Notes under the pieces: model-generated
What the model saw: the letters and a program-made list of their open reading frames with translations, nothing else
Told to the model about the DNA's origin: nothing
Databases searched by the model: none
NCBI GenBank assembly: GCA_964432835.1
Contig: CAYSPA010000001.1
Coordinates: 1-49,204 of the forward strand
Length of the DNA: 49,204 bases
Direction: 5' to 3'
Source of the DNA: an uncultured Thermoplasmatales archaeon
Lineage (GTDB): Archaea > Thermoplasmatota > E2 > DHVEG-1 > B18-G2
Program-made: the position numbers and the translations under genes
In this document: positions 6,686-22,110 of the stretch, piece by piece
How positions within the stretch are numbered: position 1 is the stretch's first letter
How the letters are laid out: every line of letters begins with the position of its first letter

Positions 6686-6757
6686 TGGACTCGTGGGGAT
6701 TCGAACCCCAGGCCTCCCCCATGCCAAGGGGGCGATCTACCGCTGATCTACGAGCCC
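6686..6757 (-). tRNA. tRNA-Ala (anticodon GGC)
   Basis: The reverse complement folds as a canonical 72-nt cloverleaf: GGGCTCG/TA/GATC-AGCGGTA-GATC/G/CCCCC-TTGGCAT-GGGGG/AGGCC/TGGGG-TTCGAAT-CCCCA/CGAGTCC/A. G3:U70 alanine identity pair present. No encoded CCA and no intron. Confidence 0.95.
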
Positions 6758-6783
6758 ACTATTCTATAATAAAGGAAAGCGGG

Positions 6784-6791
6784 TATATAAA
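6784..6791 (-). promoter_or_regulatory. TATA box for tRNA-Ala
   Basis: The minus strand reads TTTATATA, centred about 30 nt upstream of tRNA position 1. Confidence 0.6.
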
Positions 6792-6834
6792 AATTTACAG
6801 AGGACATTTCCCATAATGTTCATAAAAATCTTTA

Positions 6835-7166
6835 GCGGGCGCAGGAGAACCGGAGGTGGACACGCTGGTATAGGGGCGATTTAGCCCACCCACCTTCTTA
6901 ACCCCGTTTACCCCCAGAGCATCGGCGGTCCGCGATGAGGCTGCTCCCTTCCGGGCCTGACCCGGTTTTCGCGGCAAAGGCGGGCATGTTGCCCTCCGAC
7001 AACATGCTACCGCCACCCCCAATCCCTGGGGACGAGGTCTCATCGTTGATGGGTGGATCGCCCCTTACACCAGTGTGCCGCCCTCCGGCTTTCGGCTCCG
7101 GCGTATAGGGGATTTCCGGTTGCAGGGGACCCCTAACCCCCCAGCCTATCCTGCGCCTTTCGCCGG
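6835..7166 (-). ncRNA. Signal recognition particle RNA (archaeal 7S RNA)
   Basis: About 320-330-nt GC-rich block in an AT-rich context. The minus strand contains the helix-8 signature GGTCAGGCCCGGAAGGGAGCAGCC. The termini pair (GGCGCAGGA ... TCCTGCGCC), and the long helix-5 arms pair (GGGGCGATCCACCCATC ... GGTGGGTGGGCTAAATCGCCCC). A T5 tract follows the 3' end. Ends are good to about +/-10 nt. Confidence 0.9.
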
Positions 7167-19248: not shown

Positions 19249-19256
19249 TATATAAA
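19249..19256 (+). promoter_or_regulatory. Strong TATA box (TATATAAA), candidate promoter for the nrdJ leader transcript
   Basis: It is the only good TATA element I see between 19153 and 19470. It predicts a TSS near 19280 and a leader of about 190 nt. Confidence 0.5.
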
Positions 19257-19309: not shown

Positions 19310-19331
19310 ATCACGAGATAAAACTCGTGAT
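19310..19331 (+). other. Perfect 8-bp hairpin in the nrdJ leader
   Basis: ATCACGAG-ataaaa-CTCGTGAT, read directly from the sequence. Confidence 0.6.
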
Positions 19332-19392
19332 ATCTGAGTTGACAGCGCCTGAAACCAACCAAAATCATTAAATCTCGGTAGCCGCTTTTATC

Positions 19393-19456
19393 GATGGATG
19401 ATGAGCGAACCCTCGCTGAGCGTACAGCAATGATGAGGATCTTGAGTTCTGACATC
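19393..19456 (+). ncRNA. Candidate C/D-box sRNA (or K-turn element) in the nrdJ 5' leader
   Basis: GATG-g-[ATGATGA C box 19398-19404]-11 nt-[CTGA D' 19416-19419]-10 nt-[ATGATGA C' 19430-19436]-12 nt-[CTGA D 19449-19452]-CATC. The terminal 4-bp stem is GATG/CATC. C-to-D length is 55 nt. Caveat: the D' guide region can self-pair (AGCGA-accc-TCGCT). Confidence 0.55.
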
Positions 19457-19470
19457 TGAGAGGGGGTAGG

Positions 19471-22110
19471 ATGGGTAAAATAAAGAAAATAGAGAAGAGA
19501 GACGGGAGAATAGTTGATTTCGACCAGGAAAAAATAACAAACGCAATCTTTAAAGCGGCGCAGGCGGTGGGGGGCAGGGACAGAGAGAGAGCAAAATATC
19601 TATCGGACCAGGTAGTTAAGGAACTTGAGAAAAAATATGGAGAAAAGAGAATACCCACCGTCGAGGAAATCCAGGACATAGTTGAAAAGATACTGATAGA
19701 GCACGGTCATGCGAGAACCGCAAAGGCTTATATTCTCTACAGGCAGAAGAAAGCGGAGATAAGGGAAGAGAAGAAAAAAATCCTGAATAAAGAAAGTTTG
19801 GACGAGATAGACAAAAAGTTCAGTATAAATGCTCTCAGGGTACTTGCGTATCGCTATTTAATAAGGGATGAGGAAGGAAATATTATAGAATCTCCAAAAG
19901 AACTTTTCCAGAGGGTTGCGATCACCATTGTTCTACCCGAAATCCTGTACGATGAGAGGATTTACAGTAAAGATGGAGGTTACAAGCCACCTATAGCTTT
20001 GTCATCTTATCTCAGCAATCTCGATGCTCTCGATAGAAAGATAAGCATAGGTAAATACAAACTCACAAAATGGCATCTGGAGAGGTTCATCTCTGCCTAT
20101 GAAGAACTCGCAAACGAGGGGAAGATGAAGGTGAGCTTCGATGAACTCATGGCGATGTTGAAAAGTGGGGCTTTTGACAGGTATGAACAACTCGCAGACA
20201 AATACTTCGACCTGATGGTAAACCAGATTTTCTTACCAAACACACCAACTCTGGTCAATGCCGGAAGAAGGCTGGGGATGTTATCTGCATGCTTTACTCT
20301 CGACATAGAGGACAGCATAGAATCCATAATGGAAACGGCAAAGGAGGTTGCCCTCATCCAGAAGGCCGGCGGCGGCACGGGAATAAATTTCTCCAATATA
20401 AGACCGGAAGGGGATCTGGTAAAATCTACCATGGGAAAGGCATCCGGGCCGGTTTCATTCATGAAAATCATAGATGTCGTATCGGATGTCGTTAAACAGG
20501 GGGGTGTGAGAAGAGGGGCAAACATGGGTATTCTGGAGATATGGCATCCCGACATAGAAAAGTTCATTTCGGCAAAGGAGAGAGAGGGTATCTTGGAGAA
20601 TTTCAACATATCCGTTGGCATATGGGATGACTTCTGGGAGTATCTTGCCAACAATGCGAATTATCCCCTGATCAATCCAAGAACCAGAAAGGTGTGGAAG
20701 GAAGTTAATGCAAACACCCTGTTTCATTCAATAGCGTACCATGCTTGGTTATCCGCTGACCCAGGAGTTCTGTTCTTTGACAATATAAACAGAAGAAACA
20801 TTCTGATGAATGCGAGAGGTGGCCCTATAAGAGTGACAAACCCGTGTGGAGAGGAGCCACTGTATCCATACGAATCCTGCAATCTTGCAAGCATAAATGT
20901 TGCAAAATTTGTCAAGAAGGAAGGAGGGGGAGAGGAGTTTGACTGGGAATTTTTCAGAGAAGTTATACATCTCGCCACAAGAGCACTTGACAATCTGATA
21001 ACGATAAACAACTATCCCGTAAAAGCCATTGATAGGGCAACCAAGGAAACAAGGAGGATAGGTCTCGGAATAATGGGACTCGCCGACCTTCTGTTCAAAC
21101 TGGGCATAAGATACAATTCTGAAGAGGGTTTTGATTTCATGAGGAAGCTGGCGGAATTCCTGACATACAATGCATATGAGGAATCTGTGAAACTCGCTCG
21201 TGAGAGGGGAGAGTTTCCGCTGTTCAGAGAAACCGACTATCCGGAAGGAAAACTTCCTATAGAAATCTACTACCGGAGAGAACTCTGGAGCCAGGACTGG
21301 GATAAACTCGTTACGAAGATAAGGAAATACGGTCTCAGAAATGCGATGGTCACCACGATGGCACCCACGGGTTCGATATCAATGATAGCGGATACAAGCA
21401 ACGGAATAGAGCCAATATTCGCCCTCGTTTACGAAAAGAAGGTAACTGCCGGAACGTTCTTCTATGTTGATCCCGTTTTTGAGGAAAAACTCAAGGAAAG
21501 AGGTCTGTACAGTGAAGAATTGCTTAAGAAGATAGCCGAGAACCACGGTAGCATACAGGGTCTGAACGAAATCCCGAAAAGTTTGAGGGAGGTTTTTGTG
21601 ACATCCTATGATATCCACTGGCTTGACCATCTCGTGGCTCAATCCGTTCTGCAGATGGCCACGACCGATTCGATCTCCAAGACGATTAACATGCCCAACG
21701 ATGTTAGTGTTGAAGATGTGAAGCAGGCTTATCTAATCGCTCACGCTCTCGGATGCAAGGGAGTCACGATATACAGGGATGGTTCAAAGAGCAAACAGGT
21801 TCTGACAGTACCCTCGAGCAGGGAAGCGAAATACAGAGCAAAACCCTCAAAGTATGCGATAAAACTGTTGAGAGAAATCCTGGACAAGAACAAATGGATG
21901 AAGAGATACATAAAAATCAGGGAGGAGGGTAAGGATATCGAGGTCAAGCCTCCGGTGATTTCAGCAGAAGAAGGGGTGGAGAGAGAAAAAATCCCGAAGA
22001 GAAGCGAGAAGGTGGAGAGATGTCCGATCTGTGGAAGCATATATCTCATCCATGAGGGAAACTGCGTGGTTTGTAAGGAATGTGGGTGGAATGAGTGCAT
22101 CGTTGCATAA
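19471..22110 (+). CDS. nrdJ: Adenosylcobalamin-dependent ribonucleoside-triphosphate/diphosphate reductase (class II) with N-terminal ATP-cone and C-terminal zinc ribbon
   Basis: 879 aa. ATP-cone (KRDGRIVDFDQEKITNAIFKA), class II core motifs (LSACFTL, GGGTGINFSNIRPEG, NPCGEEPL, TMAPTGSIS), C-terminal CPICGS...CVVCKECG. GAGAGGGGG SD upstream. Confidence 0.9.
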   Translation: MGKIKKIEKRDGRIVDFDQEKITNAIFKAAQAVGGRDRERAKYLSDQVVKELEKKYGEKRIPTVEEIQDIVEKILIEHGHARTAKAYILYRQKKAEIREEKKKILNKESLDEIDKKFSINALRVLAYRYLIRDEEGNIIESPKELFQRVAITIVLPEILYDERIYSKDGGYKPPIALSSYLSNLDALDRKISIGKYKLTKWHLERFISAYEELANEGKMKVSFDELMAMLKSGAFDRYEQLADKYFDLMVNQIFLPNTPTLVNAGRRLGMLSACFTLDIEDSIESIMETAKEVALIQKAGGGTGINFSNIRPEGDLVKSTMGKASGPVSFMKIIDVVSDVVKQGGVRRGANMGILEIWHPDIEKFISAKEREGILENFNISVGIWDDFWEYLANNANYPLINPRTRKVWKEVNANTLFHSIAYHAWLSADPGVLFFDNINRRNILMNARGGPIRVTNPCGEEPLYPYESCNLASINVAKFVKKEGGGEEFDWEFFREVIHLATRALDNLITINNYPVKAIDRATKETRRIGLGIMGLADLLFKLGIRYNSEEGFDFMRKLAEFLTYNAYEESVKLARERGEFPLFRETDYPEGKLPIEIYYRRELWSQDWDKLVTKIRKYGLRNAMVTTMAPTGSISMIADTSNGIEPIFALVYEKKVTAGTFFYVDPVFEEKLKERGLYSEELLKKIAENHGSIQGLNEIPKSLREVFVTSYDIHWLDHLVAQSVLQMATTDSISKTINMPNDVSVEDVKQAYLIAHALGCKGVTIYRDGSKSKQVLTVPSSREAKYRAKPSKYAIKLLREILDKNKWMKRYIKIREEGKDIEVKPPVISAEEGVEREKIPKRSEKVERCPICGSIYLIHEGNCVVCKECGWNECIVA

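Follow-up and report, generated by a model that had tools for sequence, protein, structure and literature searches.

A 49,204-nucleotide (nt) stretch of DNA from an uncultured Thermoplasmatales archaeon, which we refer to in its entirety as the window, carries at positions 19393-19456 a short element with the boxes of an archaeal box C/D small RNA (sRNA), ending just before nrdJ, the gene for a class II ribonucleotide reductase (RNR). This arrangement raises the question of whether the element is a guide that acts on other RNAs or a leader structure that acts on the gene behind it. A preliminary description of the locus had left room for both, proposing either a methylation guide processed out of the nrdJ leader or a kink-turn (K-turn) bound by L7Ae that modulates nrdJ translation. 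Our analysis favors a guide, and we assign a probability of roughly 0.8 to an overall reading in which positions 19398-19452 encode a genuine trans-acting archaeal box C/D sRNA of ~55-58 nt. Of the original guide proposal, the identity as a guide is upheld, with conservation across the class; of the ribosomal RNA (rRNA) and tRNA targets that had been envisaged, those placed by the N+5 rule lie in tRNA and not in rRNA. Judging from comparison of the homologous loci, the unusual feature of this sRNA is a second guide that appears to co-evolve with two tRNA introns, and this feature is well supported.

All parts of the element lie on the plus strand, and every box, guide and flank is present where the preliminary description had placed it. 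The flank GATG (19393-19396) and G19397 precede box C (ATGATGA, 19398-19404), which is followed by the 11-nt D' guide GCGAACCCTCG (19405-19415), box D' (CTGA, 19416-19419), the 10-nt D'-C' spacer GCGTACAGCA (19420-19429), box C' (ATGATGA, 19430-19436), the 12-nt D guide GGATCTTGAGTT (19437-19448), box D (CTGA, 19449-19452) and the flank CATC (19453-19456). With terminal C and D boxes, internal D' and C' boxes and guides of 11 and 12 nt, the element has the features by which archaeal C/D sRNAs are recognized. A search of the 1.18-Mb genome for the strict four-box pattern gives this single match, and 10 first-order-Markov simulated genomes of equal size and dinucleotide make-up give none, placing the element far beyond chance. 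The Rfam model snoPyro_CD scores it at 34.7 bits (E 8e-6), 18 bits above the next best score in the genome (16.5 bits). The source genome, a 96%-complete Thermoplasmatota metagenome-assembled genome (MAG) with 44% G+C whose closest public relatives were sampled from sediments of the Auka and Guaymas vents, also encodes the full core set of C/D proteins, namely L7Ae (contig C31:5599-5868, 108 bits), a Nop-domain homologue of Nop5 (C22:3698-4582, 141 bits) and fibrillarin (C20:15135-15716, 240 bits).

A half-pattern of the element (TGATGA-N3-TCTTGAG-N2-CTGA) is found exactly once in 98/118 genomes of the order, representing 45/45 genera, and in 129/197 genomes of the class, with zero matches to a reversed control in either set. 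Families f5-f7 of the class lack the sRNA. Conservation upstream of nrdJ, which the preliminary description had proposed to check, is borne out in the closest relatives, where the boxes and both guides are kept and the spacer and flanks have diverged. We read 40 homologues in full, drawn from the order and from other orders of the class, and all share box C ([AG]TGATGA in 40/40), an 11-nt D' guide with the core CGAACC[CT]T, an invariant CTGA as box D', a spacer, TGATGA, a 12-nt D guide and a conserved CTGA as box D. Both guide lengths are constant across all homologues. The spacer, by comparison, ranges from 10 to 74 nt, and its ends pair over 2-14 bp in 40/40 homologues with differing stem sequences (GCC/GGC, GAC/GTC, GGCT/AGCC, ACCAC/GTGGT). 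The spacer had been described as being on the long side; its 10 nt are confirmed, yet it forms a small hairpin in every homologue, one that in the window would close the C'/D' K-turn.

Two further structures fare less well in this comparison. The letters of the proposed GATG/CATC terminal stem are present, but the stem is not conserved within the genus, and we reject it as a feature of the sRNA. A self-hairpin within the D' guide must likewise be given up, as a G-to-A change in the sister species breaks its stem. What is conserved upstream is a promoter: homologues from the order and from other orders have a TATA-like heptamer whose end lies 22-25 nt before box C, and by this distance ATTAAAT at 19367-19373 (+) is identified as the TATA box of the sRNA. 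Its position predicts a transcription start at approximately G19396/G19397, so that the GATG/CATC stem probably lies mostly upstream of the transcript.

How, then, does the sRNA relate to nrdJ? The gene (19471-22110, +) encodes an 879-aa class II RNR with an ATP-cone, an RNR all-alpha domain and an RNR barrel (Pfam PF02867, PF03477, PF00317). A Shine-Dalgarno (SD)-like sequence, GAGAGGGGG (19458-19466, +), stands 5 nt after box D, and both it and the ATG at 19471 are confirmed at the positions previously given for them, as is the claim that no TATA element intervenes, there being only 18 nt between box D and the ATG and no TATA-like sequence among them. Only part of two families shares this tight layout. 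The sRNA is followed after 18-25 nt by nrdJ in the window's genus (L028-L032), in genus g4 (L035) and in the one sampled genome of family f3 (L036), that is, in three genera (g1, g4 and g6) of two families, and the G-rich SD-like stretch between box D and the ATG is also present in these nrdJ-linked relatives. In genus g2, which belongs to the same family as the window, 138 nt and a separate TATA box lie between the sRNA and nrdJ. No nrdJ is found within ~1.5 kb downstream of the sRNA in genus g3, where another gene follows, or in the sampled loci of family f2, and none within ~1.2 kb downstream in 14 loci from other orders (0/14). In the flanks of f2 and g3 that we read, the sRNA stands alone, in several loci after purL, and faces a convergent gene. 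On the gene orders compared, linkage to nrdJ is lineage-specific, a local accident of gene order in the window's family.

A conserved palindrome, AGATATGC-N5-7-GCATATCT, is found just downstream of box D in family f2 (L037-L057). As an RNA hairpin it was rejected, because it is the coding 3' end (..DMLSEHI stop) of the convergent gene of ~149 aa, whose translation looks like that of a GAF-domain, msrC-like protein.

This distribution bears directly on the alternative that the element is mainly a cis-regulatory K-turn in the nrdJ leader, where L7Ae or a C/D ribonucleoprotein (RNP) assembled 5 nt from the SD would repress or tune translation. The closeness of box D to the SD and the recurrence of the tight layout in g1, g4 and g6 are what such a regulator would lead one to expect, and there are precedents for it, since L7Ae-bound leader K-turns regulate translation in Sulfolobus (PMC5539422, PMC6298567) and C/D genes overlapping the 5' ends of open reading frames (ORFs) lowered reporter expression (Tripp 2017, per PMC7994747). 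The sRNA with both of its guides is, however, under selection for pairing with tRNA and is kept in most of the order and in other orders without a nearby nrdJ; g2 separates the two by 138 nt and a TATA box of its own, g3 has a different gene in that place, and nothing in the element is specific to the nrdJ-linked lineages. We therefore consider a mainly cis-regulatory role decidedly unlikely. RNP assembly may still influence the neighboring SD as a by-product of the arrangement, but regulation next to the SD is, by this comparison, probably not what maintains the element.

The same comparison suggests how nrdJ is transcribed. As the linked genomes offer neither room nor a TATA-like sequence for a separate nrdJ promoter, the sRNA promoter most likely drives nrdJ, cobA and trxB as well, and their transcript would then begin with the sRNA. 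In this scenario, the nrdJ-cobA-trxB genes would have come to lie 18 nt behind box D without a promoter of their own and would be expressed by read-through from the sRNA promoter, with the sRNA either trimmed out or kept as an RNP on the 5' end of the transcript. Alternatively, nrdJ could have its own promoter, either TATATAAA at 19249, ahead of the sRNA, or one concealed within the sRNA, in which case the sRNA would not be the 5' end of the nrdJ mRNA or would be a passenger in a long leader. A strong TATA-like box does exist at 19249-19256, and TTTTATCG at 19386-19393 is weakly TATA-like. Homology between the window and a 99% relative (L021) begins only at ~19347, though, with unrelated sequence upstream, and hence ATTAAAT rather than TATATAAA is the conserved promoter; the TATATAAA box at 19249-19256 is absent from L021 and was rejected in that capacity. 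TTTTATCG is not kept in the sister species, in contrast to the TATA box at a fixed distance from box C, which is conserved class-wide. A separate nrdJ promoter is thus rather unlikely in our judgment. An 8-bp hairpin at 19310-19331, which was tried as part of the leader, is also missing from L021, and on this basis it is unlikely that either the TATATAAA box or this hairpin belongs to the nrdJ/sRNA transcription unit.

If the element is a guide, its guides should identify its targets. A search for complements by the N+5 rule, as suggested in the preliminary description, matches tRNA and not rRNA. The D guide is antisense to the anticodon arm of tRNA-Leu(CAA) (C64:364-449), pairing with nt 30-41 through 10 Watson-Crick pairs flanked by two G.U pairs (-17.0 kcal/mol), and the wobble nucleotide C34 faces, in a Watson-Crick pair, the fifth guide nucleotide upstream of box D (n5, a G), which is the N+5 position. 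In the 98 genomes of the order, the guide never varies at n2-n11, and its changes are confined to n1 and n12, the ends of the duplex. Among the relatives retrieved, nt 29-41 of tRNA-Leu(CAA) do not vary either, so that conservation within the guide coincides exactly with the pairing part. Among rRNAs of the same order, we find no sense-strand match to the D guide with ≤2 defects inside an rRNA gene. This pairing points to 2'-O-methylation of C34 in tRNA-Leu(CAA) as the predicted function of the D guide.

The D guide also fits two other tRNAs with nt 34 at the same position, less perfectly. The anticodon loop of tRNA-Leu(UAA) differs only at nt 34, which results in a G.U pair at the target (-14 to -17 kcal/mol). 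With mature elongator tRNA-Met, the guide forms 6 bp including C34 at N+5, a 2x2 mismatch at 36/37 and a further 3 bp (-9.4 kcal/mol), and with pre-tRNA-Met only 5-6 contiguous bp (-6.0 kcal/mol). The tRNA-Leu(UAA) gene (C11:8225-8344, -; relatives' genes L163-L180) has a 32-nt intron at 37/38, the first three nucleotides of which (AUC) repeat exon positions 38-40, and the D guide consequently pairs equally with the precursor and the mature tRNA. Guide position n12 pairs with intron nt 4 of this tRNA in 11/18 relatives' genes (A:T in 8, G:C in 2, T:A in 1) and forms G:T in one further relative, with a G/G mismatch in the window's own genome; n12 does not covary with intron nt 4 of pre-tRNA-Met.

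These two imperfectly matched tRNAs reappear when the D' guide is considered. It is perfectly complementary to a single site in the genome, CGAGGGTTCGC(T) at C2:19509-19520, over 11 nt or 12 counting the last A of box C, and this site lies inside the 26-nt intron, at 37/38 and with a canonical bulge-helix-bulge, of an elongator-type tRNA(CAU) gene. This gene was missed by aragorn without the intron option and mislabeled with it; from the bulge-helix-bulge fold and the anticodon loop, we overruled by hand the labels 'Ser(cga)', which is tRNA(CAU), and 'Arg(cct)', which is tRNA-Trp. In the order, sampled with 23 relatives and the window's own genome, the motif is present in the Met intron of 24/24 genomes, starting 10-15 nt after A37, and each genome's own D' guide pairs with it over 8-11 contiguous bp (24/24). 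In other orders, the pairing is found in 9/10 genomes for which both guide and intron are in hand.

The guide and the intron change together. At n4, the pair is C:G in 18 genomes (CCCT guide, AGGG intron) and T:A in 6 (CCTT, AAGG) with no discordant case, these being counts of genomes and not of independent events placed on a tree. In G007, the guide sequence GAGCC faces GGCTC in the intron (G:C at n7), and in G196, from another order, GAATCC faces GGATTC (T:A at n6); at n5, all guide-intron pairs examined have C:G. G173 (L135), also from another order, has a degenerate D' guide (AAGAATTCCTT) beside an intact D guide, and its Met intron is short and without the GGTTCG motif, which looks like a joint loss of guide and target. 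The motif is not confined to tRNA-Met. The tRNA-Leu(UAA) intron of the window's genome carries GGGGTTCG, and the corresponding introns of 17 relatives contain the motif with the same lineage-specific changes as the Met introns, including GGGCTCG in G007 and AAGGTTCG in the sampled genomes with a CCTT guide. The consensus R-A-R-G-G-U-U-C-G occupies the apical part of both introns and is absent from the genome's own introns of tRNA-Glu, tRNA-Arg and tRNA-Tyr. Co-evolution of the D' guide with two unrelated introns implies that the pairing is under selection.

Other targets for the D' guide were examined and set aside. The only candidates in rRNAs of the same order were CGAGGGTTAGT in 23S domain III, which gives 8 bp followed by a mismatch and pairs poorly with the guide versions of family f2, and GAGGGTTCGG in 16S helix 6, whose sequence differs in a 16S of the same genus (L018). 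The T-arm and variable arm of tRNA-Leu(CAA) have a mismatch at the N+5 nucleotide in the window's own genome. A more elaborate proposal is that the D' guide targets the T-arm of mature tRNAs, at G52 of tRNA-Thr(CGU/UGU) and others, and that the intron motif looks like a T-loop only by coincidence. The pairing itself is good, with 10 bp to the T-arm of the genome's own tRNA-Thr(CGU) (-18.7 kcal/mol) and 9 bp plus a G.U to tRNA-Thr(UGU). Against this, the guide changes CCCT to CCTT, GAACC to GAGCC and GAACC to GAATC are matched by introns that restore Watson-Crick pairing, and the universally fixed T-loop GGTTCG cannot follow them. We know of no Gm52 (2'-O-methylguanosine) in archaeal tRNA, and we regard this proposal as highly improbable.

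In three loci from other orders with long D'-C' spacers (L122, L123 and L126; 26-74 nt), the D' target motif recurs in the spacer's 3' arm (..AAAGGGTT..), which could therefore pair with the D' guide in cis. This repeat may represent self-masking or a duplication of the guide region.

What the intronic pairing does is a separate question. By topology and by the identity of the two precursors, its most likely role is docking. In this model, the sRNA would assemble with L7Ae, Nop5 and fibrillarin, and the D guide would place C34 of tRNA-Leu(CAA) at N+5 for 2'-O-methylation. The D' guide would hold the imperfectly matched pre-tRNA-Met and pre-tRNA-Leu(UAA) on the RNP through their intron motif, with the anticodon arm on the D guide and the intron motif on the D' guide in collinear order, joined by a short linker across the C'/D' K-turn. 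The docked precursors would be methylated at position 34 before splicing, and the intron G at N+5 of the D' duplex may be methylated as well. Three considerations favor docking: the precursors that bear the motif are exactly those that fit the D guide imperfectly with nt 34 at N+5; tRNA-Leu(UAA) and tRNA-Met complete the set of four substrates known from Pyrococcus to carry a 2'-O-methylated nucleotide 34 (Nm34), tRNA-Trp being the fourth; and the two-guide topology is collinear, with the guide ends meeting at the C'/D' K-turn. That one sRNA serves three tRNAs in this way, a co-evolving intron motif enabling methylation of position 34 in tRNA-Leu(UAA) and tRNA-Met, is a tentative proposal to which we give slightly less than even odds.

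The D' guide may instead be an ordinary guide that methylates the intron G, for example to stabilize or mark the excised intron or to time splicing, with no help to position 34 and with tRNA-Leu(CAA) as the sole substrate of the D guide. Such a guide would simply follow the canonical N+5 rule; it would account for the invariant C:G pair at n5, its duplexes of 8-11 bp are of normal guide length, and the weak contact of the D guide with pre-tRNA-Met (only 5-6 contiguous bp at -6.0 kcal/mol) would cease to matter. It leaves a ribose methyl inside a tRNA intron, which has no known function, and it does not explain why the motif is carried by exactly the precursors that fit the D guide with nt 34 at N+5, why both of these are C/D-guided Nm34 substrates in Pyrococcus (PMC7994747) or why the two pairing sites are collinear across the C'/D' motif. 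We consider it a credible alternative to docking, at distinctly less than even odds. With respect to the more familiar intron-dependent arrangement of the sR-tMet type, no continuous duplex crosses the 5' splice junction here, the D' duplex being wholly intronic, and no candidate with C/D boxes for a dedicated guide to C34 of pre-tRNA-Met was found in the genome.

Several points weigh against the overall reading. The snoPyro_CD score of 34.7 bits is below the family's gathering score of 45, a shortfall that carries little weight because the model derives from Pyrococcus RNAs and the control archaea all stayed below the cut-off as well. There are no 16S or 23S genes in the MAG; the search for rRNA targets covered other members of the order, and the organism's own rRNA may still hold a target. 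In tRNA-Leu(UAA), the G.U pair at the nucleotide to be modified may prevent methylation, as may the two mismatches beside the target in tRNA-Met, and the plain N+5 rule points the D' guide at an intron G of no known use. The covariation, as stated above, is counted by genome, and a weak nrdJ promoter may lie inside the sRNA.

The genome as a whole contains few comparable RNAs. Box C followed by box D at sRNA distance occurs 68 times, as against 62-85 times in simulated genomes, and this chance-level number implies that hardly any canonical C/D RNAs are detectable in the organism. We detected no guide aimed at rRNA in the genome, and the only guide RNAs found are the sRNA upstream of nrdJ and an intron of tRNA-Trp, both aimed at tRNA anticodons. 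The tRNA-Trp(CCA) gene (C42:175-318) has an intron of ~68 nt with C/D-like boxes (GATGATTGA .. CTGA .. GTGATGA .. ATGA), and the pairing of its D guide TTAACTGGAGCC bridges the exon-intron junction and puts C34 at N+5. By this pairing, the intron is recognizable as the classic guide of euryarchaeal tRNA-Trp introns, although its C and D boxes are non-canonical. The number of C/D sRNAs usually rises with growth temperature. At 6686-7156 on the minus strand of the window, an archaeal signal recognition particle (SRP) RNA (218 bits) is immediately followed by a tRNA-Ala(GGC), and the two have 64-65% G+C each in a genome of 44% G+C, consistent with a thermophile. Within C20:14076-15788 (L019:379-2091), the fibrillarin gene directly follows an aTrm56-HD domain fusion gene, aTrm56 being the tRNA Cm56 (2'-O-methylcytidine) methyltransferase, and the Nop5 gene (C22:3698-4582) is located elsewhere, unlike in many archaea where it adjoins fibrillarin. 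This hot-sediment lineage seems to run the fibrillarin machinery with very few detectable guide RNAs.

Docking, if true, would give two introns a concrete function, would explain their retention across a whole archaeal class and would constitute an archaeal two-guide form of the 'extra base-pairing' of eukaryotic small nucleolar RNAs (snoRNAs). We know of no described guide that is wholly complementary to the interior of an intron. With regard to the neighboring genes, the locus suggests that a housekeeping operon such as nrdJ-cobA-trxB can come to depend on an sRNA promoter, which matters for the annotation of transcription units and 5' untranslated regions in uncultured archaea.

Each of these aspects has a known counterpart. 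Archaeal C/D genes that abut or overlap the 5' ends of ORFs are known, if rarer, and their maturation reportedly needs only the box motifs (Tripp et al. 2017, per PMC7994747). As in those cases, the sRNA gene here lies <25 nt from a downstream ORF and probably shares its transcript; unlike them, the sRNA brings its own conserved promoter, which the ORF appears to borrow. K-turns that bind L7Ae in mRNA leaders (Daume et al. 2017, PMC5539422; Huang et al. 2019, PMC6298567) resemble the present element in forming a K-turn near the ribosome-binding site, but they are single and guide-less, whereas here we observe a complete dual-guide sRNA conserved independently of the downstream gene.

The closest relatives in function are found among guides for the wobble position. 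C/D sRNAs that methylate wobble nucleotides are already known; the element is in this respect ordinary and, by its predicted pairing, a new member of this group. In Pyrococcus, C/D-guided Nm34 is found on four tRNAs, including Leu(CAA), Leu(UAA), Met and Trp (2001 work, as summarized in PMC7994747). The same set of tRNAs is involved here, the antisense element likewise covers the anticodon loop with nt 34 at N+5, and the tRNA-Trp intron guide is also present in the window's genome. Comparing descriptions, Pyrococcus has a separate RNA for each tRNA, whereas here one trans-acting sRNA fits tRNA-Leu(CAA) perfectly and tRNA-Leu(UAA) and tRNA-Met imperfectly, with a second guide for the introns of the latter two.

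The sR-tMet of Haloferax volcanii reportedly acts on the precursor that still carries its intron, part of which is required for the pairing. It is listed as an example of intron-dependent C34 methylation of pre-tRNA-Met (Joardar et al. 2011, in PMC4033218), and the C/D-guided wobble methylation of elongator tRNA-Met with involvement of intron pairing that is predicted here would be of the same kind. In Haloferax, the exon-intron junction is reportedly covered by one guide duplex that has C34 at N+5. In the present case, the intron is paired separately, in a D' duplex that starts 10-15 nt inside it, and the guide opposite C34 matches only in part. In eukaryotes, extra base-pairing by box C/D snoRNAs boosts methylation where the site itself is only weakly paired (van Nues et al. 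2011, PMC3116282), and the additional complementarity beside the guide duplex is common to both systems. The eukaryotic substrates are rRNAs, the accessory sequences are not a full second guide and no intron is involved, whereas in the sRNA described here the additional pairing is provided by a complete D' guide and directed at the introns of two tRNA precursors.

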